DNA from: Terriglobia bacterium
GTDB lineage: Bacteria > Acidobacteriota > Terriglobia > UBA7540
Reading direction: 5' to 3'
Assembly: GCA_030040515.1 (NCBI GenBank)
Contig: JASHTO010000348.1
Span: 1-49,823 of the forward strand
DNA: 49,823 nt
The notes under the pieces were generated by a model. The model was not told where the DNA came from and made no database searches. It saw nothing but the letters and a program-made list of their open reading frames with translations. How positions within the stretch are numbered: the stretch's first letter is position 1; each line of letters opens with the position of its first letter. A program made the position numbers and the translations under genes. Positions 2,147 to 17,200 of this stretch are shown here, piece after piece.

Positions 2147-2150
2147 TCCG

Positions 2151-2376
2151 CCGGCCGGCGCAGACTCCTGGGGTAGGGAGTCTGCGATCTCGAACTGACG
2201 CTTATCTTGCAGTTTCAAACGCAGAGATTGAAATGCATCTCTGCGCCAGCCGCGATTCCGCTGGCTGGCGCAGACTCCTGGGGTAGGGAGTCTGCGATCT
2301 CGAACTGACGCCTATCTTGCAGTTTCAAACGCAGAGATTGGAAGGCATCTCTGCGCCGGCCGCGATTCCGTGGCTG
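2151..2376. repeat. Tandem direct repeat, 2 x 110 nt plus the start of a third unit; each unit holds two perfect stem-loops
   Basis: Units 2151-2260 and 2261-2370 differ at 6 of 110 positions. Each contains GCAGACTCC-N8-GGAGTCTGC and GCAGAGAT-N8-ATCTCTGC. The loop of the second hairpin differs between copies (tgaaatgc vs tggaaggc) while the stems are intact. Located in the convergent intergenic gap 2147-2572. Confidence 0.9.
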
Positions 2377-5929: not shown

Positions 5930-7840
5930 GTGCTATTCGTATGTCACCCCAACGGACACGGCGAGTGGTGCTGCATGAGCATGCGCGGTATGTTGCTCGA
6001 AGACAGGGGAATGGGGATGAAGCGAGGATCCCGTGATCAGGACTATTTGCTTGCGCATGCCTGCTTAGTAATTGCCTTTGCCTGCCTCCTTACCAGCTAC
6101 CTTTATCCTGCCGTTCTGGGTAAGCATGCAACTTCTTGCCGGGTTTTGATTTTCATTTATTTCGCTTACGCCATTTTGAACTTGGGCGTTGTTCTGCTCA
6201 GGAGGCCGATCAGCCTGGTGTGGCGCTTGAGCTTGCACGCAGCCGACATCGTCGTCGCATCGTCAATTATTTTACTGACCGGGGGAGCCCACAGCCCCTT
6301 TCTGCCGCTTTACTTTTTCGTGCTCCTCGCCGCGGCAAGCCGGTGGGGAGTTGCCGGGGCTTTCCCGACGCTCTGCGCCTGCATCATGGTCTTACTTTTG
6401 GAGTCTGCCGCGCCCTTTCCCTGGTCTGCGGGAATGCTGCACTGGACGGGGGGAAGCGGGTATTTGAACGCCATCATCGCCCTTCTGGTGCTTTCGGCTT
6501 ATCTATTCGGATTGCTTTTGATGGACCGGGAGAAGAAGCTGCATGCGGAAGCTGGCATCGTCACCCGGCTGGTGCGGCAGGCGCTCCACGAGCCGAGTTT
6601 GCGCGTCAATATCGGCAACATCCTGATTTCCGTGCGGGAGTATTTTGATGCGGATCAAGTGGGGCTGGTAACTCAGGAAATCAAAGCCGAGCAGGCCTTC
6701 TTATGGGAAGCGAGCCGGCCAAGTCCTGACCAGACCAACAATGAAGTCAAATCCTGGACGCTGACCGGGCTTAAGCGCGAGGCGTATTTCACCATGTTGC
6801 CGGAGGGGATGTGGCGGATGCTCGGGCTGCGGCGCATCGGGGGGGACCCGAAGCTTCGGGCGGAGGCCGCCGCGAGACGTGAAATTGAATTGCAGAGTCC
6901 GCTCCGCGCGGCGCTGGCCGGGTTCCTTGCTCCGGAGCAGGATTACGACGAACTCTACGACATGCGCATTGTCAGCGAACAGCACACGCCCTTCGGGGGG
7001 TTCGGTTCACTGCTGGCCACTTCGTTTTCGCTGGAGAAAAAGTGGTTTGGGCGCCTGACGGTCTACAACCCCGGGAAAAGCAGCGAGGCGAAGGGCAATT
7101 CCCGATTCCTTGCCTCCTTGATCCGCGAGGTTGGACCCGTTATTTACAACAAATTTCTGGTGAGTCGTCTGCGCTCAAGGGCGCAGGCACGGGAGCGGCT
7201 GCGCTTGGCGCAGGAATTGCACGACGGGGTCATACAATCGCTGATCGGGGTGGAAATGCAAATCGACCTCCTGCGGCGGGCTCAGGAAAGGTCGGCGAGC
7301 CCGGCTTTTTCGAACGGCGATTTGAAGCGCTTGCAAGAGGTTATTCACAACGAAATCGTGGATTTTCGGGAGCAGATGCAGCGCGTTAAACCGCTGGAGG
7401 TGGATCCCACGCACCTGTTGGACTGCATTGCCGGAACGGTTGAGAGGTTTCGGCGCGACCTGGGAATTTCAGCCAGTTTTGTCTCCGAAGCTGAGGAAGT
7501 TTCCCTTCCGCCCCGAGTATGTTCGGAGTTGGTGCGAATCGTGCAAGAGGCCCTGGCCAATATCCGCAAGCACAGCGGAGCACACAAGGTTCAAGTCGTT
7601 TTTGTGCGGGGGAATGAACACTGGAAACTCCGCGTGGAGGATGACGGCCGCGGTTTTGGTTTTGCCGGCCGCCTTACGTTGGCCGAGCTGGAACATGTTC
7701 CCGAGTGTCCAATTGTCATTAAGGAGAGGGTTCGGTCGATCGGAGGGGAACTGATGATTGAGTCCATCCCCGGTTCCGGCGCCAAATTGGAAGTATTGCT
7801 ACCCTTGGCCACAAATGGAAGATCAACTTACCCAAATTGA
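5930..7840 (+). CDS. Membrane sensor histidine kinase, NarL-partner (HisKA_3) type
   Basis: About 5-6 hydrophobic helices at the N-terminus and a GAF-like middle region. H-box 'AQELHDGVIQSL'. HATPase motifs 'QEALANIRKH', 'EDDGRGF', 'GGELMIESIPGSGAKL'. Start is uncertain (GTG 5930; in-frame ATGs at 5975 and 6017). Confidence 0.85.
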   Translation: MLFVCHPNGHGEWCCMSMRGMLLEDRGMGMKRGSRDQDYLLAHACLVIAFACLLTSYLYPAVLGKHATSCRVLIFIYFAYAILNLGVVLLRRPISLVWRLSLHAADIVVASSIILLTGGAHSPFLPLYFFVLLAAASRWGVAGAFPTLCACIMVLLLESAAPFPWSAGMLHWTGGSGYLNAIIALLVLSAYLFGLLLMDREKKLHAEAGIVTRLVRQALHEPSLRVNIGNILISVREYFDADQVGLVTQEIKAEQAFLWEASRPSPDQTNNEVKSWTLTGLKREAYFTMLPEGMWRMLGLRRIGGDPKLRAEAAARREIELQSPLRAALAGFLAPEQDYDELYDMRIVSEQHTPFGGFGSLLATSFSLEKKWFGRLTVYNPGKSSEAKGNSRFLASLIREVGPVIYNKFLVSRLRSRAQARERLRLAQELHDGVIQSLIGVEMQIDLLRRAQERSASPAFSNGDLKRLQEVIHNEIVDFREQMQRVKPLEVDPTHLLDCIAGTVERFRRDLGISASFVSEAEEVSLPPRVCSELVRIVQEALANIRKHSGAHKVQVVFVRGNEHWKLRVEDDGRGFGFAGRLTLAELEHVPECPIVIKERVRSIGGELMIESIPGSGAKLEVLLPLATNGRSTYPN

Positions 7841-8489
7841 AATCGTAATTTCGGATGACCACCCGGTTTTCCGTGACGGCTTGCGGAGATTGCTTGAGTC
7901 CGAGGAAGGGATCCGTGTTGTGGCGGAAGCCTGCGACGGCGAAGAAACCATCCGGTTGGTCCGTCAATACAAGCCCCGGATCCTGCTCCTGGACCTCGCC
8001 ATGCCGAAGGGCACCGGGCTTGAAACCCTTCGCGTCTTAAGCCAATCGGGGATTTCTACTCGAACCATCCTGCTTACCGCCTCGATAGAAAAGGAGCAAG
8101 TGCTTGAGGCGCTGCAATTGGGGGCGCGCGGAATAGTTCTGAAGGATTCCACGATACAGGTTATTTTGAAAAGCATCCGTTGTGTGAACGAAGAGCAATT
8201 TTGGGTGGGCCAGGAGAGCGTCTCAGACCTGATTCAAGCCCTGAGACGGTTGATGCCGCAGCACCGCGCCTCAGAGGCCAAGAAGAATTTTGGGCTTACC
8301 TCACGCGAATTACAGGTTATTGCCCTGATCGTCGCCGGCTACACCAATAAAGATCTCGCCACAAAGCTGGGCATTAGCGAACATACTGCCAAACACCACC
8401 TTACCAACATTTTTGACAAGCTGGGGGTTTCCAACCGCTTGGAATTGGTGCTATTTGCCATCAACCAACAGCTCATCAAAGAGGAATAG
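7815..8489 (+). CDS. Response regulator, NarL/LuxR family (REC + HTH)
   Basis: In-frame ATG at 7815 gives 'MEDQLTQIEIVISDDHPVFRDGL...LLLDLAMP' (REC domain). C-terminal 'LTSRELQVIALIVAGYTNKDLATKLGISEHTAKHHLTNIFDKLGVSNRLEL' (LuxR HTH). Overlaps the kinase stop by 26 nt. Confidence 0.9.
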   Translation: MEDQLTQIEIVISDDHPVFRDGLRRLLESEEGIRVVAEACDGEETIRLVRQYKPRILLLDLAMPKGTGLETLRVLSQSGISTRTILLTASIEKEQVLEALQLGARGIVLKDSTIQVILKSIRCVNEEQFWVGQESVSDLIQALRRLMPQHRASEAKKNFGLTSRELQVIALIVAGYTNKDLATKLGISEHTAKHHLTNIFDKLGVSNRLELVLFAINQQLIKEE

Positions 8490-8575
8490 CACCCACCCTG
8501 GACTTGGCCTGACCCTCATCTGACTCCAAGCGCACGTAACCCATTGAAACTAAAAAGCGTCTAGGTGCTAGCGGA

Positions 8576-8666
8576 CACGGTCCATTAGTGCTATTCCGAT
8601 TGTACCATCGGGCTATTGTCAGGGTTTTTTAATTCGCTAAGCTAGGGTGCCATGGCGTATGGTCCG
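8576..8666 (+). promoter_or_regulatory. Conserved intergenic box 1, copy A: sigma70-like promoter candidate (TTGTCA-N16-TAAGCT) with a conserved upstream half-site
   Basis: Collinear with 13556-13645. 16-nt identical core ATCGGGCTATTGTCAG (8607-8622). -35 TTGTCA at 8616-8621 and -10 TAAGCT at 8638-8643. Upstream CACGGNCCATTAGT is conserved. Confidence 0.5.
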
Positions 8667-8884
8667 TGGCCAGACGGTGCGGCCCATGGAGCGGAGAAAT
8701 CTGGGAAGCATACTTTGCGGGATAGCGGTTTGGACTAAGGCGTAATGACGTCGGATGCGCATTGTGGAGTCGTTGAGGTTTAAGGAACTTCCCTGTGCTC
8801 AACTGCCTCTACACCATGAATTGACACAGCGTTAGGCGTCAGTACTCGAGCGAATCATAGATCGGCTTACTGGGCAAGCTTAAT

Positions 8885-8911
8885 TGTAAGTCAAGGGGCG
8901 GAGCTTTATCT
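8885..8911 (+). promoter_or_regulatory. Conserved box 2, copy A (27 nt, 25/27 identical to 13889-13915): ops-like element or second promoter
   Basis: TGTAAGTCAAGGGGCGGAGCTTTATCT, 43 nt before the PilZ-like start codon. Contains GGCGGAGC (compare ops GGCGGTAGC). Also reads as TTGTAA-N17-TATCTG. Confidence 0.4.
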
Positions 8912-8953
8912 GGAATCTTAGAGGCTCCGCGTGGATGAACATACTTTGATTTC

Positions 8954-9337
8954 ATGCGGGACAAAAAGATGCTGACTAAGACGTTGGTCCAAGCCGTGGG
9001 TCGGGCTCGGCGGTTTACGCTCCACCTTCGAGTCCTATACCGGGAGCTCGAAAGTCAGGATTGGCTGGAAGGGTGGACAGAAAACATCAGCCGGACGGGG
9101 ATGCTGTTCAAGTGCGAAGTCCCCCTCGCCGTCGATACGGTCGTGGAGTTGAAATTGCAGCTTGCCTCCGGGGGTGGAAAGGACGGTCATCCTGCCGAGG
9201 TTCTTTGCAAGGGCACCGTGGTGAGAGTGGAGCAAGTTGGAGGGTTGGACGCATCCACGGTCATGGCTGTGACGATCCACCCTTATCGCATTACGCGCGG
9301 AGGGTTGTCCTCAAAGAGCGTAATCCCATTTTCCTGA
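8954..9337 (+). CDS. Small PilZ-domain-like protein (paralog 1)
   Basis: 127 aa. 'GRARRFTLHLRVLY...GWTENISRTGMLF' carries the (D/N)xSxxG motif (NISRTG), but the arginine motif is RxxR rather than RxxxR. About 45% identical by eye to the 14109-14462 product. No obvious SD; an alternative ATG lies at 8969. Confidence 0.6.
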   Translation: MRDKKMLTKTLVQAVGRARRFTLHLRVLYRELESQDWLEGWTENISRTGMLFKCEVPLAVDTVVELKLQLASGGGKDGHPAEVLCKGTVVRVEQVGGLDASTVMAVTIHPYRITRGGLSSKSVIPFS

Positions 9338-9383
9338 AGAACGAAGGGGCAAGAGTTTGAATGGCAGTCCCAAGGAGAAACTA

Positions 9384-10007
9384 ATGCCGATCGAAGAAAC
9401 GGGGGCGGAAGGAACCTCCAGCGTGGTGAAAGTGAGCTGGCATGCCCTTTACACCCGCCACCAGCATGAAAGGCTGGTAGCCCATGCTTTGACCGGCAAA
9501 GGCTTTGATATATTCTTGCCGCAGTATCGCACGGTTCATCGTTGGAAGGACCGTTGGAAGGAACTCGAATTGCCCCTTTTCCCCAATTACGTTTTTGTCC
9601 TGGGCGGACTGGATCGTATGTTAAACATTCTGACGACGCCGGGCGTCCACTCCATGGTGTCCTGGGGAGGGCGACCGGCCGACATCCCGCAGCATGAAAT
9701 TGAGGCGGTACGCAGGCTGATTGAAAGCCCATTACGAGTTCAGAAGCACCCTTTTATCAAGTGCGGCGACAGGGTTCGGATAAAGTCGGGTCCCCTGGAA
9801 GGAATTGAAGGCATCCTGGTGCGCAGCAAAAGTGCCTACCGGCTGGTCCTTTCGGTCGAAATGCTGGCGCGGTCTGCAGCCGTCGAGGTAGATGTTAACA
9901 TGGTCGAGCGGGTGGGCGGGGCCGAAGCGTTTCGAAAGGATAGGTTGAAGGCAGACACGGCAAGTCAGAGCTCGCAGCCAATTCGCATACCTGAATTTCA
10001 GCCTTAA
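9384..10007 (+). CDS. NusG-paralog transcription antiterminator (UpxY/RfaH-like, NGN + KOW)
   Basis: ATG 9384 lies 5 nt after AAGGAG (the track ORF begins at TTG 9357). 'WHALYTRHQHERLVAHALTGKGFDIFLPQY...LFPNYVFV' (NGN domain). 'GDRVRIKSGPLEGIEGILV' (KOW domain). Sits at the head of a polysaccharide operon. Confidence 0.8.
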   Translation: MPIEETGAEGTSSVVKVSWHALYTRHQHERLVAHALTGKGFDIFLPQYRTVHRWKDRWKELELPLFPNYVFVLGGLDRMLNILTTPGVHSMVSWGGRPADIPQHEIEAVRRLIESPLRVQKHPFIKCGDRVRIKSGPLEGIEGILVRSKSAYRLVLSVEMLARSAAVEVDVNMVERVGGAEAFRKDRLKADTASQSSQPIRIPEFQP

Positions 10008-10077
10008 ACAGCAAGAGGAAAACAACTCGGGAATTCAATTGACTTTATAAAGGGATATTCACGAAGGGCTCTAAGAG

Positions 10078-10797
10078 ATGAAATTCGATCACATGGATCT
10101 ACGAAAAAGTATCCTGCGGGACGCGGGAGCCAGCCATCGCCTGATCCGAGCCAGATTCTGGGCGGGGCTGACGGTCGCAATGATCTTGATTCTGGGACTG
10201 CGATCCGGAAAGGCAAGGGAATTGCCTCGCATCCAAGGTGTGCCTAAAGTTGCGGCAACAGGGCAGAACGCGCCGGCGGATGCCGGCGTGCCACAGTCCA
10301 AGTCGAAGGAGGCGGCCTACCTTATCGGACCGTCCGATGTCCTGGCGATCAGCGTGTGGAAGGATAATGAGCTCACTCGAACGATTCCAGTGCGCCCGGA
10401 TGGAAAGATCACTCTGCCCTTGATTGGGGATCTAGCCGTGAGCGGATTGACGGCAGAGGCTGCACAGCAGCTCATTGCACAAAAATTGAAGGAGTTTATT
10501 TCCGATCCGCAAGTTACCGTGATCGTGCAGGAAGTCAAAAGCAGAACTTACAGCATTTTGGGCAAAGTCGCCAAGCCCGGGGCCTACCCCTTGGGGAAAC
10601 CCACGACAATTATTGAAGCCATAGCAATTGCCGGCGGCTTCCAGGATTTCGCCCGGGAGAATAAGATTTACATCTTGCGACCCAAGAGTGACGGTTCGGA
10701 TCAGACGGTTCCGTTCGATTACAAGAAGGCCATCCGGCGGCACAATCCCGAAGAGAATATCGAGCTCCAGAGCGGCGATACAGTCATCGTTCCTTAA
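10078..10797 (+). CDS. Polysaccharide export protein, Wza/Poly_export + SLBB type
   Basis: 239 aa. 'IGPSDVLAISVWKDNELTRTIPVRPDGKITLPLIGDLAVSGLTAEAAQQLIAQKL' is the classic Poly_export motif. The SLBB-like C-terminus ends 'LQSGDTVIVP'. Confidence 0.85.
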   Translation: MKFDHMDLRKSILRDAGASHRLIRARFWAGLTVAMILILGLRSGKARELPRIQGVPKVAATGQNAPADAGVPQSKSKEAAYLIGPSDVLAISVWKDNELTRTIPVRPDGKITLPLIGDLAVSGLTAEAAQQLIAQKLKEFISDPQVTVIVQEVKSRTYSILGKVAKPGAYPLGKPTTIIEAIAIAGGFQDFARENKIYILRPKSDGSDQTVPFDYKKAIRRHNPEENIELQSGDTVIVP

Positions 10798-10821
10798 GAA
10801 TGATTCAGGAGGTCGAAATCC

Positions 10822-12432
10822 GTGGTGGAACAAGAAGAAAACCTTGATGAAATGATCAGTAAGGGGCTGCGCGCCGCGGCGAAACACCGCTGGTGTCTGT
10901 TGTTGCCTACGATTCTGGGAGGGCTCGTGGCATGCGGGGTTTCGCGAGTGCTTCCCAATCGTTACGAGTCCGAGGCCACGATTCTTGTGGAGCACCAACA
11001 GGTGCCCGAACGATATGTAACACCCAACACCACCGCGGATATGCGCGAGACCGTGCTGATCACCACCGACGCCATCCTTTCACGCACCCAGTTGCTGAAA
11101 ATCATTGATGAATATAATCTTTATCCAAATGAGCGGAAGCGGCTCTCTCCCGAGGAATTGGGCTCTCTCATGCGCGGTAAGATCGCCATAAAACCCTTGG
11201 ATGAGTTAGGGGGCACCAAGTCGCTCGAGGAATTCAAGATTTCCTATATGGGCACCAGTCCTCTCATGGCTCAGGAGGTCACTCGCAAACTTACAACACT
11301 TTTCATTCAAGAGAACGACCGGTGGCAGGGAGACCAGGATCGGGTCACAACGCAGTTCCTGGAACAGCAGGTTGAAGCCGCTGCCGCTGAGTTGAAGAAA
11401 ATGGAAGACCAGGTTCGGGAATTCAAGATGAATAATCTTGGCGCCTTGCCTGAGCAACAGCAGGGAAACCTGGGCATTCTTACCGGATACCAGATGCAGC
11501 TTCAAAATACCCAAGCGGCGCTTGGCCGGGCAAAGGAGCAGCAGGTTTATATCGAATCTCTGCTGGCGCAATACCAGCAATTGGGCGCCGAGGAGGTTCC
11601 CGCGCCGGGTGCGGGGGGTACAGTTACGGCGGATCCTGTCCAGACGATCAAAGCGAAGTTGGCCGACCTGAGGAGCCAAAGGGCCACCTTGCTGGCGGAC
11701 CACACGGAAAAATATCCTGACGTCGTCAGGATTGAAGAAGAGATCAAGGAATCAGAGGCCTTGTTGGCGGCCGCCCTAAAGAAAACTCCCGGGCCTTCCA
11801 CGGATGGCGCCGGCAAGGAATCCGCTGAGACGGCAGATTCCTCCGCGAACAATGCTGCCATGGCCCAATTGAAGAGCCAACTCCAGGCAAACCAACTCGA
11901 AATCCAAAACAATGAGACGCTGGAAAAACAACTACAAGGACAAATTGCCGAGTATCGGAATCGCCTCAACCTGACTCCGGTTCGCGAGCAGCAACTCGCC
12001 GAGTTAAATCGGAATTATGAACTGACCAAGAAAAACTACGATGATCTGCTGACCAGAAAGCAGGCGTCGGAATTGGCCACGGACCTTGACCAGCGGCAGC
12101 AGGGCCAGCGATTCCGCACCATCGACCAGCCCAGTCTGCCCATGAAACCCGCCTGGCCGAACCATATGGCCATCGCCTTGGGCGGTTTGGGGGCGGGCCT
12201 GGCCTTGGGCATCGCATTGGTTTTCATTCTATACTTCCAGGATCACTCCGTGATGAATGAGAAGGAGTTGGGTCGCTTCTTTTCTTTTCCTTTATTGATA
12301 GGCGTTCCGTCTCTTCCTACAAGGGCCGACGTCCGAAGGCGTTCTCGGATGCATGTGGTAGAGTGGGTGCTAGGTTTCGCCTTGTTTGTGGTCGTCTGCG
12401 CATCCGAGTACTTTGTATATCGTCGGGGCTAG
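10822..12432 (+). CDS. Polysaccharide chain-length determinant (Wzz/GumC-type, kinase-less half of a split Wzc)
   Basis: 536 aa. AGGAGG lies 8 nt upstream of GTG 10822. N-terminal TM helix plus 'NRYESEATILVE'. Long coiled-coil middle region and a C-terminal TM helix (AIALGGLGAGLALGIALVFILYF). Confidence 0.8.
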   Translation: MVEQEENLDEMISKGLRAAAKHRWCLLLPTILGGLVACGVSRVLPNRYESEATILVEHQQVPERYVTPNTTADMRETVLITTDAILSRTQLLKIIDEYNLYPNERKRLSPEELGSLMRGKIAIKPLDELGGTKSLEEFKISYMGTSPLMAQEVTRKLTTLFIQENDRWQGDQDRVTTQFLEQQVEAAAAELKKMEDQVREFKMNNLGALPEQQQGNLGILTGYQMQLQNTQAALGRAKEQQVYIESLLAQYQQLGAEEVPAPGAGGTVTADPVQTIKAKLADLRSQRATLLADHTEKYPDVVRIEEEIKESEALLAAALKKTPGPSTDGAGKESAETADSSANNAAMAQLKSQLQANQLEIQNNETLEKQLQGQIAEYRNRLNLTPVREQQLAELNRNYELTKKNYDDLLTRKQASELATDLDQRQQGQRFRTIDQPSLPMKPAWPNHMAIALGGLGAGLALGIALVFILYFQDHSVMNEKELGRFFSFPLLIGVPSLPTRADVRRRSRMHVVEWVLGFALFVVVCASEYFVYRRG

Positions 12433-12492
12433 GAGAGCGAATGAACTTCCCTCGAAGAAGCGCCGAGTCGAATGTGAAAGGATGCTGATCTC

Positions 12493-13326
12493 GTGCATAA
12501 TCGCACTCTCAAAGCCGAATCAGAAAAGGACGAAATCCTTGAGACAACTTCGGATGAGTTTTTGAAGGGATTGGAAAGAGCAGACAGTGATTTGCCTTTC
12601 CCAGTGGAAACCATTTCTGTCCCTGAAGAAAGCCGCTTGGTTATCCAAACCGAACCCCGAAGCGCGGGTGCGGATCGATTCAGATTGGTGCAGATGCGCC
12701 TTCGCCATCTGCAAGCTTCCAAAAAGCTGAGAACCCTCCTGATTACAAGTCCTCTGCCTGGCGATGGCAAGAGCACCGTGTCTTTGAATCTGGCTGCTGC
12801 CTTGGCCGAAAAGGGGAAAAGGCCCGTCCTCTTGCTGGAAGCCGATGTCTACCGGCCTTCATTGTTGAAGAAACTGGGTCTTAGCCCCTGGGCAGGTTTG
12901 ACCGAATGTCTGGATAACAAAAGCGACCCCATGCTGGCTATTCGGCGGGTAGATCCCATGGGGTTTTACATTTTGCCCGCCGGGAGCCCGACGCTGGGGG
13001 GTAACTTCCTCCAATCTACCCTCACCCCCCAATTTTTTGAGGGTTTGGCAACGACTTTTAAGTGGATTATCGTCGATTCTCCCCCCACCACCCCCATGGC
13101 TGAAATCCTGGCGCTGAAAGTCCTGACCGATGCCACGTTGCTGGTGGTTCGGGCCGGCGGTACCCCTCGTGAGGCGATCGAGACGGCGACTCAGACCCTG
13201 GGTCGGGAACACATTATTGGGATCGTACTCAACGACGTCGAAGGGCTCGAGAAAGTCTATTCGAAATACTATGGGTACACGCAACCTGCCCACGGCCCCA
13301 AAGGTGCAAAGTCTATTCGAAAGTAG
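12493..13326 (+). CDS. BY-kinase-type tyrosine autokinase / P-loop ATPase (CpsD/CapB-like)
   Basis: Walker A 'PLPGDGKST', A' 'VLLLEADVYRP', Walker B 'WIIVDSPP'. Tyr-rich tail 'KVYSKYYGYTQ'. Confidence 0.85.
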   Translation: MHNRTLKAESEKDEILETTSDEFLKGLERADSDLPFPVETISVPEESRLVIQTEPRSAGADRFRLVQMRLRHLQASKKLRTLLITSPLPGDGKSTVSLNLAAALAEKGKRPVLLLEADVYRPSLLKKLGLSPWAGLTECLDNKSDPMLAIRRVDPMGFYILPAGSPTLGGNFLQSTLTPQFFEGLATTFKWIIVDSPPTTPMAEILALKVLTDATLLVVRAGGTPREAIETATQTLGREHIIGIVLNDVEGLEKVYSKYYGYTQPAHGPKGAKSIRK

Positions 13327-13555
13327 CCGCCTGAAAACTTTTAATGCCGATTGGAATTGCTTCTTGCTTAAAAATCAATTGTTTGGGACCCTGGCAAAAT
13401 CTTAAGATTTCCCCCAGCTTTGCTTTCATAATGAGCGGTTGCAACAGGCGGCGTGCCACGACAGCCGAGTGCCATAGGTTGCAGATAGCAGCTTTACTTC
13501 TTTGCTACCTGAACTCCTAATCTGATGTAAACATGGCATTTTAGTGCCAGGCAAG

Positions 13556-13645
13556 CACGGGCCATTAGTACCATTTCACCCCAACTATCGGGCTATTGTC
13601 AGATTTCCTTAATACCCTAAACTGGTTGTGCGCCCCAGTGGTCCG
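13556..13645 (+). promoter_or_regulatory. Conserved intergenic box 1, copy B: sigma70-like promoter candidate (TTGTCA-N16-TAAACT)
   Basis: Same register and same 16-nt core as copy A. -35 at 13596-13601 and -10 at 13618-13623. Lies in the 782-nt non-coding gap 13327-14108. Confidence 0.5.
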
Positions 13646-13888
13646 CAGATCTGCTCGAAAAGTCATGCGGCGGGTTGCCGGAAGAGAAGTGGGTGGTCAG
13701 TAATTTACCCACCAGAAAGTGTACTCAGTTCAGGATTGGCGCGAATGATGGCGAATGCGAAAAGCAAGGGTATCGTAAAGAGTGAAAGGCGTGCGCAACC
13801 CTTGCATTCCTTTTTGGCAAGTGGAGTATCAATCCTAAGGGTCGCTCTTCGCTCAAACTTAAGTTAAGGCCTACAGATCAAGTGTTTC

Positions 13889-13915
13889 TGTAAGTCAAAG
13901 GGCGGAGCTGTATCT
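13889..13915 (+). promoter_or_regulatory. Conserved box 2, copy B (27 nt): ops-like element or second promoter
   Basis: TGTAAGTCAAAGGGCGGAGCTGTATCT, 193 nt before the second PilZ-like start codon. Also reads as CTGTAA-N17-TATCTT. Confidence 0.4.
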
Positions 13916-14108
13916 TTCTGCCTGCACCATCTTCCGATTGAGAAGTCTTCGCCCTTGTCTTAACGAGTCGATTTCAAGAGGGCCTGCAATTGCGATTTAA
14001 AGCATCACCCCGAACTTCCCCTGAGCGTTGCGTACTAAATCAGACCAAATAGCCAAGAGAAGGAGACGCGGAATTCCGGAAGTTGAATAATCATCCGCGA
14101 TTTGAGCC

Positions 14109-14462
14109 ATGACTGATCCCCGCCCCAACGTAGTCATGAAAGGAACTCCCAGAGCTGAGCGCTTTCCGATCAGCATTCCGGTACGCTATCGCGAACCGAA
14201 CCGCTCCGAGTGGCTCCAGGGTAAGACCGAGAACATTAGTCGGTCGGGAGTTTTATTGCTCACGGAAGCCTCATTAGAGCCAAAGATTGCAATCGAATTG
14301 AGGTTTGAACTTCCTATTTCTGTCCTCGGAGAGGGGCGCGGGCAGATTGTTTGCAAGGGAACGGTGGTCCGTGCGGAGGAGAATCCCCTCTTGGACCCAC
14401 CGACTACCCTGGCGATTGCAATTCGCAGTTATCGTATGACGCGCGGAGGGCAGGTTCATTAG
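14109..14462 (+). CDS. Small PilZ-domain-like protein (paralog 2)
   Basis: 117 aa. 'PRAERFPISIPVRY...GKTENISRSGVLL...IVCKGTVVRAEE...YRMTRGG' parallels paralog 1 block for block. Confidence 0.6.
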   Translation: MTDPRPNVVMKGTPRAERFPISIPVRYREPNRSEWLQGKTENISRSGVLLLTEASLEPKIAIELRFELPISVLGEGRGQIVCKGTVVRAEENPLLDPPTTLAIAIRSYRMTRGGQVH

Positions 14463-14486
14463 CCCAAAGAAGGGGAACACCACTTC

Positions 14487-15875
14487 ATGCAGCAAAGTGG
14501 GAAACAAGAGGGTGGGCGGAATGCGGTTTCGTGGAGAGGCCAGTTGAACAAGCTCATTCCGCTTGCCATTTTCATCACCTTGACACCTTTGACCATTCAC
14601 GCCCAAGTTTCTTCTTCCGGACTGTCGGCCTTGGCGTCTCCTGTGGCCATCGGCAATGGGTTGCAGGCTCCGTTGCGATTTTCGAATGAGGCTGTCCCAA
14701 CCAACCAGGTCTCGGTGAGCATGGGCGCCTCAATGATCTACAACGATAACGTCTTCGATGAAAATTCGGATCGGGTTGCAGACGAGGCCGCTTCCATTAC
14801 TTCCCACTTTGCTTTCCTGCGGCAAACTCGGAACGTATCTTTCAATTTCAATTACTCGCCCAGCTTTTTTCTCTACAAGAACACGACCCAATATGACCGC
14901 CTCAATCATATGGGCAACCTGGACCTTGAGTACAGGTTCAGCCCCCGATGGGTACTCACCTTGGACGATGGGATCAGCTATCAAAATGGCATCTTCCAAT
15001 CCCTGGTGGGGCAGCAAATTTCCTCGGGGCTGGGATCCCCTACCGGCCTGAATCAGTCCGTCTTTCCGTATACGGACAGAACGCTTACGAATACGAGTGG
15101 GTTCGACCTGATCTTTGTGAAGAGCCATCGAACATCCATAGCACTGACGGGTGGGTACAATGTGCTCCAATTCGGAAGCAGCCAGATCGCGGGCGAGCCG
15201 TTGTATAACGGCCGCTCTGCAAGCGGCGGGATTCAATATCAATATCACATCACCGAGCACACGAGTTTCGGGATTTCCGTCCTTCATGAGGATTCTACGT
15301 ACAAAGGGGGTGACGCCATTGGCAGCCTCGAACGATATCAAACCGAAAGCGCTCTCATTGCCCTTCAGTCGCACTTTACCCCGAGCGTGACGGTGTCGTT
15401 TTTCGGCGGACCGCAATACATAACCACCTTTGGTGAGTCGGCGGGCGTAAGCGCAACGGAACACTTTCAAGGAGCAGGCGGGGGAAGCATCACCAAGGAA
15501 GTCAGAAAAACGGCTTTCGATATTACTTTAGAAAGAAGGGTCTCTGACAGCGGGGGCATCTACGGGCAAGTGGAATACACGTCGGCGACCTTAGGAGTCC
15601 GTCGACACCTCGTGGGGCATTGGGAAGCTGATTTCCGCAATGGCGCCACCCGGATCGACACGCTGTATTCGCAGTTGGGAACAGGGCGGACGGATGGTTT
15701 GCTGGGTAGTTTTGAACTCGTGCGCCCCTTCGCAAATGGTGCGACCTTCCGCGTTTCATACCAAAATGGCCATCAACTCAGTTCAGGAACATTGCCCATT
15801 GCGGAAAAATACGACTTGAATTTGGTGACGTTAGCAATTGACTTCCGGCTGAAGTCCATTCCGATTGGCCATTAG
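14487..15875 (+). CDS. Putative outer-membrane beta-barrel protein of the EPS export apparatus
   Basis: 462 aa with a signal peptide (LIPLAIFITLTPLTIHAQ). Alternating hydrophobic/polar beta-strand pattern throughout, rich in Y, G, S, T, N. No enzymatic motifs. Confidence 0.45.
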   Translation: MQQSGKQEGGRNAVSWRGQLNKLIPLAIFITLTPLTIHAQVSSSGLSALASPVAIGNGLQAPLRFSNEAVPTNQVSVSMGASMIYNDNVFDENSDRVADEAASITSHFAFLRQTRNVSFNFNYSPSFFLYKNTTQYDRLNHMGNLDLEYRFSPRWVLTLDDGISYQNGIFQSLVGQQISSGLGSPTGLNQSVFPYTDRTLTNTSGFDLIFVKSHRTSIALTGGYNVLQFGSSQIAGEPLYNGRSASGGIQYQYHITEHTSFGISVLHEDSTYKGGDAIGSLERYQTESALIALQSHFTPSVTVSFFGGPQYITTFGESAGVSATEHFQGAGGGSITKEVRKTAFDITLERRVSDSGGIYGQVEYTSATLGVRRHLVGHWEADFRNGATRIDTLYSQLGTGRTDGLLGSFELVRPFANGATFRVSYQNGHQLSSGTLPIAEKYDLNLVTLAIDFRLKSIPIGH

Positions 15876-16012: not shown

Positions 16013-17200
16013 ATGATTGCTGACATTTTTCAATCGAAGAAACCGTGGAAAAGAATCACGGGCAACGGGATGGCCTTTGGTCCCCAAGTCAGGGCAGAAT
16101 CCGACAGCGAGGATGCGGGATTTTCACTCGTGTCGGAGGATCTGTTCCGGAGAGTGCTCACCATTGAGCGCAAACGGAGTGAGCGGTCCCGGCAGAGGTT
16201 TGTGCTCATGCTGCTCCATGTGGGCAAGGTCATCGACACGGGGCGGGGGAGAGTGATCCTGGAAGGAATTACGGAGGCACTTTCCAACTCGGCGCGGGAG
16301 ACGGATTTGCATGGCTGGTATGAGGACGGATCCGTCATCGGAGTCATTTGCACGGAAATCGGCAGGGGCGATCTGGCTTCGATCCTGAGTGCCTTAAACT
16401 CCCGGATGAGGGCTGCCTTGCAGACCTGCTTGCAGCTTGAGCAGATTGAATCGATCCATATTACTTTCCACGTCTTTCCCGATGACATGGAAGTTGGCAA
16501 GGGTGGCCGTTCAACCGACATCAGCCTTTACCCTGACCTCCTGACCAAGGACCAGGCTTCCTCGACTTATCGCTTGATCAAGAGAGCCATCGATGTGGTC
16601 GGCAGCTTTCTTGCCCTGATTATCCTCTCTCCTCTTTTTGCGGTCATTGCCATTGCCATCCGGCTGACCTCAAAGGGGCCGATCTTGTTCAAACAGGACC
16701 GTGTCGGTCAGTACGGTGAACCCTTTTCCTTCCTCAAGTTCCGGTCGATGTATTTCCAGAACGACGCGAGGATTCATCGGGACTATGTTCGCCGCCTCAT
16801 TTCCGGGAAGGGAGTGACGAAAGGGGATGAAAAGAATGCACCGGTCTACAAGTTAAAGGATGATCCCCGGATCACACCGGTGGGAAGATTTCTGCGCAAG
16901 ACCAGTCTGGATGAACTGCCGCAATTCTTCAACGTCCTCAGAGGAGAGATGTCGCTGGTGGGGCCACGTCCCCCCATTCCTTATGAGGTCGAGGTCTACG
17001 AAATATGGCATCGGCGGCGCTTCCTCGAAGCGAAACCTGGAATTACCGGGTTGTGGCAGGTGGAGGGTCGCAGCAGGACCAAATTCGACGAGATGGTTCG
17101 TTTGGACCTGCGCTATGTCAAGACCTGGTCGCCGTGGTTGGACATCAAAATCCTCTTGCGAACCCCTGCCGCCGTGCTGAAGGGAAATGGAGCCTATTGA
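16013..17200 (+). CDS. Priming phosphoglycosyl transferase (Bac_transf/WbaP-PglC type) with an N-terminal degenerate GGDEF-like domain
   Basis: C-terminal '[18 protein letters not shown]...[25 protein letters not shown]...[37 protein letters not shown]'. The N-terminal ~190 aa is cytoplasmic and GGDEF-like (see findings). Alternative start at 16070. Confidence 0.85.

Follow-up and report, generated by a model that had tools for sequence, protein, structure and literature searches.

Repeated leader elements at the heads of polysaccharide operons are a known theme, and they have been described as JUMPstart/ops in Enterobacteria and as opsX in Bacteroides (PMC11685472, PMC2864571). In E. coli, the ops element has the sequence GCGGTAGC (PMC11685472) and JUMPstart contains a stem-loop upstream of ops (PMC2864571). 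In Bacteroides, the NusG paralog UpxY loads at opsX, an element of about 40 bp in which a region encoding a pause hairpin is followed by the non-template mini-hairpin 5'-YGCGNAGCR (Saba et al. 2024, PMC11685472). Moreover, the distance from opsX to the start codon of upxY can be as short as 9 bp (PMC11685472). Here, we describe an element with a similar design in a stretch of 49,823 nt from a Terriglobia bacterium (assembly GCA_030040515.1, contig JASHTO010000348.1, forward strand; hereafter the window), which carries an exopolysaccharide (EPS) locus with two operon heads, units A and B. Each head contains a promoter-like sequence, box 1, and further downstream a second short conserved sequence, box 2. 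It is probable, with a chance that we put at about two in three, that box 2, located behind a regulated box 1 promoter, is at both heads a site of the ops type at which a UpxY-family NusG paralog (positions 9384-10007) is loaded. Acidobacteriota are abundant in soil and peat, and the exopolysaccharides that they produce are important for the aggregation of soil and the retention of carbon. To our knowledge, almost nothing is known about the regulation of the EPS loci in this phylum, and we found no publication linking NusG paralogs to EPS loci of Acidobacteria. Control by an antiterminator at the operon head is of a known kind but has not previously been described in these bacteria. A first-pass annotation of the window, which was made from the letters without database searches, had regarded the duplication of a whole leader-plus-effector module within one polysaccharide locus as a non-standard feature, a view that is not supported in the light of JUMPstart/ops and opsX.

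Both heads have the same internal order of box 1, a long leader, box 2 and a small PilZ gene. The first-pass annotation had recognised this order, and it was borne out: the box 1 copies at 8576-8643 and 13556-13623 are 74% identical over 68 nt without a gap, the box 2 copies at 8864-8911 and 13868-13915 are 77% identical over 48 nt, and the two PilZ genes are paralogs. The distances that it had given from the -10 hexamer to box 2, 242 nt in unit A and 266 nt in unit B, were confirmed by direct measurement. Among the direct-repeat families of the whole window, a repeat finder ranks box 1 second and box 2 seventh. For comparison, 26 orthologs of PilZ-A with 64-90% protein identity were collected together with their contigs. 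Both boxes are near-invariant (ATCGGGCYATTGTCAG, TGTAAGTCMMAGRGCGGAGYT) in both units of these orthologous loci, and the conserved block around each of them exceeds the box itself, extending over about 110 nt at box 1 and about 95 nt at box 2. Judged from this conservation, the two operon heads share homologous regulatory DNA that is under purifying selection. Such shared and selected DNA at both heads implies that export and synthesis are controlled in a coordinated manner, as had been suggested for the locus. Each gap can be described as a composite leader consisting of two independent cis modules, box 1 and box 2.

Box 2A (8845-8916, + strand) consists of hairpin arms at 8864-8872 and 8884-8892, a 21-nt core at 8885-8905 and, within the latter, the motif GCGGAGC at 8898-8904. 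Box 2B (13849-13920, + strand) has its arms at 13868-13876 and 13888-13896, the 21-mer at 13889-13909 and GCGGAGC at 13902-13908. With up to three mismatches allowed, the two 21-mers are the two matches to the pattern, compared with 0.02 expected by chance, and a covariance model of the element assigns 61.4 bits to unit B and 47.5 bits to unit A, the next best score in the 49.8-kb window being 7.4 bits. The stem of the hairpin joins GGCTTACAG(G) to (C)CTGTAAGTC, and the loop between them mostly measures 7-13 nt. Eight or more contiguous pairs can be formed by 63 of 113 box 2 instances, compared with one of 113 after shuffling. Moreover, 87% of the hairpin cells are paired in an alignment of 132 sequences, whereas 22-45% are paired in controls in which the partner columns were slid. 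The variation in the 5' arm is almost confined to changes that are compatible with G-U wobble pairs; the outermost pair has changed from GC to AU in 11 sequences, and a compensatory exchange of U-A for A-U at pair 4 was found in the loci L062 and L067, where CTGTATGTC occurs together with GGCATACAG or GATATATGG. The hairpin is followed by a spacer of 5 nt (ACAGG or AARGG) and then by GCGGAGC, for which GCGAAGC (four copies, differing solely at the N of GCGNAGC) and GCAGAGC (one copy) are the only variants among the listed copies.

A separate observation concerns the sequence in front of the hairpin. In a subgroup of loci (L014, L015, L028, L040, L049, L056, L065, L074, L077, L081, L087, L103-L105, L114 and L124), a CGTAAGTC- or CGCAAGCT-like stretch precedes GGCTTAC about 20 nt upstream of the 5' arm and could pair with GGCTTAC. 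This alternative hairpin could compete with the box 2 hairpin in an attenuator-like manner.

The distribution of box 2 was determined by scanning one genome per species with a degenerate 21-mer pattern, for which about four chance matches are expected from its information content, and the covariance model was then built to reach divergent copies. Genomic stretches with box 2 number at least 119, and almost all of them belong to metagenome-assembled genomes (MAGs) of Acidobacteriota/Terriglobia, with one to three copies per MAG. A total of 133 unique instances were listed, and the following counts refer to these. The first downstream gene encodes the NusG paralog in 76 instances, a PilZ protein in 32, Wza in five and a priming transferase in two, and in about 24 further instances the NusG paralog comes second, behind PilZ. 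The unclassified first genes include those for a Wzx-like flippase, an ABC-2 permease, an ATPase of the type II secretion system (T2SS) type and an ATP-grasp enzyme. In every classified case, box 2 lies on the same strand as the downstream polysaccharide genes. MAGs with several copies often have only one of them beside the NusG paralog. For instance, L045 lies beside the paralog in MFD03323.bin.2.49 and L115 and L116 do not, and in SPRUCE 381 the same is true for L073 as opposed to L042 and L061. An arrangement of many sites, one of which is adjacent to the paralog, looks like a single-factor regulon of the RfaH kind. Box 2 is a Terriglobia-wide element that is tied to the NusG paralog and not to PilZ.

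Short conserved sequences that can form hairpins and recur in one genome might also be generic dispersed repeats, similar to repetitive extragenic palindromic sequences or miniature inverted-repeat transposable elements, that have no specific regulatory role. However, the window contains exactly two copies of box 2 in 49.8 kb, the copies always lie upstream of and co-oriented with polysaccharide genes, and their position relative to the start of the NusG-paralog gene is fixed. This explanation is effectively refuted, and the question raised with the first-pass annotation, whether the leader has homologs in relatives or merely consists of genome-wide repeats, could be settled in favour of the former because both boxes are conserved in orthologous loci. 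The 21-mer was also detected on long contigs whose assignment lies outside Acidobacteriota, namely the 1.27-Mb contig of L021 from a Desulfatiglandales MAG and the 1.45-Mb contig of L069 from a Nitrospiraceae MAG, which has two copies. The genes downstream encode an ATPase of the T2SS type and an ABC-2 permease of the polysaccharide type. These copies could be chance matches, could have been acquired by horizontal transfer or could indicate a wider distribution.

The close vicinity of box 2 to a start codon raises the possibility that the element acts purely at the RNA level. In 60 of the 133 listed instances, an ATG or GTG located 3 nt past the 21-mer opens the reading frame of the NusG paralog (median length of 201 aa), which places the GGAG of the core 4 nt before the start. 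Box 2 might then be a translation-initiation operator by which the NusG-paralog gene is autoregulated, or the hairpin together with single-stranded GGGCGGAGCU might be bound by a translational repressor or by the KOW domain, as has been proposed for LoaP. The wobble-compatible and occasionally compensatory changes in the hairpin fit this idea, and in both units of the window a complementary sequence further downstream is available for pairing with the core, namely GCTCCGC at 8924-8930 in unit A and, for GGGCGGAG (13900-13907) in unit B, CTTCGCCC (13947-13954). Across the listed instances such a complement, with at least six contiguous pairs, is slightly enriched (61 of 130 versus 37 of 130 after shuffling), but it is conserved neither in position nor in sequence, and a general hairpin 3' of the core was rejected as part of the element for the same reason. 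Furthermore, the start ATG has turned into ATC in both units of the window, where the first gene lies 65-220 nt downstream of box 2, and yet the 21-mer has been retained. Ribosome binding does not explain the element there and therefore cannot be its sole role. The GCG-N-AGC core and the geometry of hairpin and core also match ops-type sites that are read as DNA, and overall we regard a purely RNA-level function as unlikely. In unit B, the pairing of GGGCGGAG with CTTCGCCC followed by TTGTCTT (13900-13961) resembles a terminator hairpin with a long loop that directly follows the core; it is not conserved in B-type orthologs.

The two arms of the hairpin, CTTACA and TAAGTC, bear a loose resemblance to -35 and -10 hexamers. 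Box 2 could thus be a promoter, or a double-stranded operator, of the operon for the NusG paralog and the EPS proteins, and the start of the NusG-paralog gene at most 23 nt downstream in many loci would give a short leader. However, the spacing between the arms is mostly 13-15 nt (range 2-33 nt) and amounts to 16-18 nt in 15 of 96 cases, whereas the hexamers of box 1 are 16 nt apart in 32 of its 34 copies. TAAGTC also does not end in the T that is invariant in -10 hexamers, and the changes in the arms are mutually complementary, which is predicted by base pairing and not by two independent hexamers. A promoter within box 2 is therefore very improbable.

The factor that would load at box 2 is encoded on the + strand at 9384-10007, with ATG 9384 as the most likely start codon and an AAGGAG motif 5 nt before it. 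The protein is a full NusG paralog with NGN and KOW domains, and it was assigned to the UpxY family with 116.2 bits against a cutoff of 100 (NCBIfam NF033644). It stays below the cutoffs for RfaH (76 versus 144.5 bits) and LoaP (64 versus 125 bits) and also below that for NusG, and its sequence relatives in the PDB are NusG and RfaH. The Terriglobia element and opsX share the location in a polysaccharide operon leader, the order of a hairpin-encoding region and a GCG-N-AGC core (GCGGAGC fits GCGNAGC) and, in most Terriglobia loci, an UpxY-family gene that comes first and has a very near start codon. In contrast to opsX, the Terriglobia sequence hardly varies between loci or between species and so does not look locus-specific, which resembles one factor with many sites, whereas Bacteroides has eight pairs of Y proteins and ops sites. 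It also differs in the spacer between hairpin and core (5 nt versus about 2 nt), in flanks that miss the Y and R of YGCGNAGCR, in the absence of an UpxZ gene and of an invertible promoter from the locus and, in the clade of the window, in the PilZ gene that lies between the site and the paralog, besides its occurrence in the phylum Acidobacteriota. The resemblance to RfaH and ops/JUMPstart consists in one NusG paralog, several long envelope or polysaccharide operons that carry the same short leader element, and a GGCGG...AGC core. However, the Terriglobia core is GCGGAGC and not GCGGTAGC, the T that is read by RfaH is absent, and the gene for the factor lies in cis right behind the site in most loci. 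LoaP and EAR/epsC of Firmicutes also bring about processive antitermination of long polysaccharide or antibiotic operons and need a leader hairpin, but they do not have the ops-like single-stranded core of the Terriglobia element, and no match to epsC/EAR from Rfam was found in the leaders or in the window.

Several points weigh against box 2 being an ops-type loading site. The 12-nt consensus of E. coli ops, GGCGGTAGnnTG, is not matched by box 2, and the Rfam model for JUMPstart (RF01707) gave no match at E values up to 10, neither in the region 7500-15500 nor with a 151-nt query (8820-8970). Homology to the 39-nt JUMPstart that is located 76 nt upstream of E. coli rfbB, the comparison sequence, was rejected: although box 2A aligns with it at 17 of 21 positions, a shuffle test of the Terriglobia consensus gave p of about 0.09, and unrelated tiles of the window score equally well. 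As the similarity is not significant, only the GCG..AGC core that both share is retained in the comparison. Among the proteins encoded next to the NusG paralog, no match to the UpxZ family was found; its gene is flanked by that for PilZ in front and by a Wza-like gene behind. The invariance of the 21-mer over at least 119 stretches is partly due to construction, since the 3' hairpin arm and most of the 21-mer were fixed by the search pattern, and the compensatory changes in the hairpin come from a few divergent copies. At the many loci at which the GGAG of the core precedes the start codon of the NusG paralog, the conservation of box 2 could partly reflect ribosome binding. Finally, the transcription start, the pause, factor binding and antitermination are inferred only, and the response regulator discussed below was assigned to box 1 by synteny alone.

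Box 1A (8553-8650, + strand) contains a putative -35 hexamer, TTGTCA, at 8616-8621 and a -10 hexamer, TAAGCT, at 8638-8643, which are separated by 16 nt, together with operator-like imperfect repeats (AGCGTCTAGGTGCT near 8556-8571, CCATTAGTGCTAT at 8582-8594, and GGGCTATTGTCA). In box 1B (13530-13630, + strand), TTGTCA at 13596-13601 and TAAACT at 13618-13623 are likewise separated by 16 nt, and the operator-like sequences are the palindrome TGGCA-N6-TGCCA at 13534-13549 and CCATTAGTACCAT. The spacer between TTGTCA and TA(A/G)NCT is the one that is kept at 16 nt in nearly all box 1 copies, and a generic promoter scan picks up the copy of unit B (13596-13623). In L045-type loci, the palindrome ATAGCAC-N6-GTGCTAT lies upstream of the box 1 promoter. 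Box 1 is thus best described as a predicted promoter of the sigma-70 type with imperfect palindromic operator sites, which lie upstream of and overlap the -35 hexamer. Wherever the upstream sequence suffices, the A-type box 1 lies directly 3' of the gene for a NarL/LuxR regulator, even at 45-68% protein identity, and the B-type copies come after the gene for the BY-kinase. This gene order makes the NarL/LuxR response regulator a candidate for the protein that binds box 1. Box 1 also occurs apart from box 2, in L003 at 17241 (before the transferase gene) and in L005 at about 8715-8812. Together with the PilZ-B gene of L005, which is an internal operon gene that has no leader of its own, these copies reveal that box 1, box 2 and PilZ are separable modules.

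A mechanism that would account for the observed conservation, anatomy, gene association, orientation and copy pattern of box 2, and for the family of the paralog, can be proposed because of the analogy with RfaH and ops and with UpxY and opsX of Bacteroides. One signal, transmitted via the NarL/LuxR-type regulator that would act at the operators of box 1, may fire both operons. About 245-270 nt into the transcript, RNA polymerase would pause at box 2, the pause would be stabilised by the nascent-RNA hairpin of GGCTTACAG and CTGTAAGTC, and GCGGAGC would form a GCG/AGC mini-hairpin that is exposed on the non-template strand. The NusG paralog could then bind the element and stay with the polymerase, thereby suppressing termination and polarity in the export operon with its genes for the NusG paralog, Wza, Wzz and BY-kinase. 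Via box 2B, the paralog would also act in trans on the synthesis operon of about 17 kb. Export and synthesis would thus be switched on together and be transcribed to the end. The PilZ genes simply happen to follow the element as first cistrons in the clade of the window, and the element does not require them.

The locus provides a sharply defined cis element of about 45 nt with class-wide conservation, a candidate factor of the UpxY family and a candidate upstream two-component switch. With it, the design of a pause hairpin followed by GCG-N-AGC, known from Bacteroides and Enterobacteria, would reach a third phylum, which suggests that the design is ancient or has been reinvented repeatedly for long envelope operons. 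For practical purposes, the box 2 motif may be used as a tag for the heads of EPS operons and for the regulon of the paralog in Terriglobia MAGs, and the covariance model could seed a new family of RNA or DNA motifs.

The genes around the two heads were assigned by family profiles, and the first-pass annotation had been correct in calling NusG-like, Wza, Wzz and BY-kinase genes behind the first gap and genes for an outer-membrane protein and the priming transferase behind the second. All of them are encoded on the + strand. Unit A is preceded by genes for a sensor histidine kinase (5930-7840; HisKA_3 and HATPase_c domains from Pfam) and a NarL/LuxR-family response regulator (7758-8489; receiver domain and GerE helix-turn-helix according to Pfam and NCBIfam). 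The two form the two-component system that always precedes the A-type box 1, a synteny that L001-L011 share with more distant loci. The gap and the genes for PilZ-A and the NusG paralog are followed by the export genes of operon A, which encode a Wza-like protein (10078-10797), a Wzz-like polysaccharide co-polymerase (10822-12432) and the BY-kinase (12493-13326). Unit B starts behind the latter with the second gap and the PilZ-B gene and continues with an outer-membrane protein (14487-15875), the priming glycosylphosphotransferase (16013-17200) and a long run of biosynthetic genes. The order from the histidine kinase to the transferase, including both gaps, is kept on the contigs that carry PilZ-A orthologs.

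PilZ-A (8969-9337, + strand) comprises 122 aa with the motifs TENISRTG and RARRF, and PilZ-B (14109-14462, + strand) comprises 117 aa with TENISRSG and RAERF. ATG 8969 is the most likely start of PilZ-A, as in all called orthologs, so that the first gap extends over 8490-8968. The two proteins are 41% identical (E = 2e-28) and reach 28.6 and 37.0 bits with the Pfam profile for PilZ (PF07238), for which the gathering cutoff is 22.5 bits. A solved structure of a relative was not found by sequence. All 32 aligned family members have kept TENxSxxG, and in all 32 the RxxxR motif is replaced by a conserved RAxRF, with the arginines three residues apart. B-type leaders (14063-14075 in the window; L001 and L003) share the conserved block AAGGAGACGCGGA, which precedes the start codon of PilZ-B by about 35-45 nt. 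It is too distant to be the Shine-Dalgarno sequence of PilZ-B, and neither of the PilZ genes has an obvious one.

The leader and the PilZ gene had been described as one duplicated unit with a possible link to cyclic di-GMP (c-di-GMP). In its stronger form, this idea makes leader and PilZ a c-di-GMP-responsive module with PilZ as the effector acting on export and synthesis. Indeed, the arrangement of box 2 followed by PilZ recurs as described above, PilZ lies on the same strand within 900 nt of 47 of the 133 listed elements (35%) and is never antisense, and several loci have the order motif-PilZ-motif-NusG (L013, L016, L018, L062, L067, L068 and L117). Moreover, the proteins pass the Pfam threshold and their NxSxxG is conserved. 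However, most of the listed elements have no PilZ gene nearby, so the two do not always travel together, and in the 76 instances in which the NusG paralog directly follows there is no PilZ gene in between. The internal PilZ-B gene of L005 and the replacement of RxxxR by RAxRF also argue against such a module, no c-di-GMP riboswitch (GEMM-I or GEMM-II) was matched by Rfam in 7500-15500 or 8820-8970, and we found no publication linking PilZ to NusG. A joint module of this kind is quite unlikely. The link between PilZ and box 2 is real but secondary. Like the PilZ domain of BcsA, Alg44 and YcgR-type proteins, which are c-di-GMP receptors that govern the output of exopolysaccharide, the proteins of the window are small PF07238 proteins from an EPS locus with an intact NxSxxG; unlike these, they are stand-alone first cistrons of about 120 aa beside an antiterminator gene and have RAxRF in place of RxxxR. 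It is a doubtful, speculative thought that PilZ proteins of the RAxRF type modulate the NusG paralog or its loading at box 2, as a counterpart of UpxZ that responds to a nucleotide second messenger. If this were true, c-di-GMP would gate the processive antitermination of EPS operons in Terriglobia, and the recurrent PilZ neighbour may in any case point to a link between second-messenger signalling and transcription elongation.

The interior of the leaders is less conserved than the boxes. Between A and B, the interiors are 45% identical in the window, which is near the background of the alignment, and 79% identical in L003 (9649-9950 versus 14571-14876), where the two leaders resemble each other more than the A-type leaders do between several species. 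This suggests a recent duplication, or gene conversion between the operon heads, in the L003 lineage. The similarity beyond the two short boxes, which had been noticed for the patches at 8740-8761 and 13741-13761, is thus weak within the window, where A and B share essentially the boxes and this patch; the patch lies, however, in a block that is conserved in orthologous leaders, and the orthologs do have longer conserved blocks. Box 1 and box 2 are about 300 nt apart in most units, and 147 nt in unit A of L001, where a loss of about 130 nt has shortened the leader. RNAalifold predicted a long-range helix of 10 bp in leader B, in which GCGAAAAGCA (13757-13766) pairs with CGCTCTTCGC (13843-13852) and 8 of 10 pairs are formed (13757-13852, + strand). 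The helix, which has about 75 nt between its arms and immediately precedes box 2, joins the patch region to the sequence directly in front of the hairpin. In leader A (8757-8849, + strand, including the patch), the arms at 8757-8766 and 8840-8849 are degraded and 5 of 10 pairs are left. Across the leaders, 85% of the positions of this helix are paired, compared with 34-62% in slid controls, and six pairs have changed on both sides, which provides moderate support by covariation. Covarying leader structure is thus supported for the box 2 hairpin, by a few divergent copies, and moderately for this helix. A large structured leader RNA was rejected, since the folding energies of leader A (z = -0.18) and leader B (z = +1.13) are no better than those of shuffled sequences. 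A 5-bp helix of GCGGA with TCCGY, which lies close to the 5' end, was rejected because it has no support by covariation, and so was a conserved small open reading frame, as the frame of 79 aa at 13628-13867 is not kept in orthologs and the similarity in unit B of L092 is split over two frames. In either leader, no Rfam family was matched, which excludes GEMM, JUMPstart, EAR/epsC and Acido-1.

When the whole window was searched with Rfam at gathering scores, a tRNA was the sole match. This tRNA-Gly(UCC) gene (21836-21911, + strand) lies amid EPS biosynthetic genes of the same strand, between reading frames that end at 21788 and start at 22122. For a tRNA this is an unusual placement, which could reflect the boundary of an operon or an old site of integration. 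Moreover, a tandem repeat with a unit of 110 nt (2.1 copies, 94% match) and internal inverted repeats is located at 2147-2376 (+ strand), directly after the stop codon of the gene for a GH20 glycoside hydrolase (92-2146).

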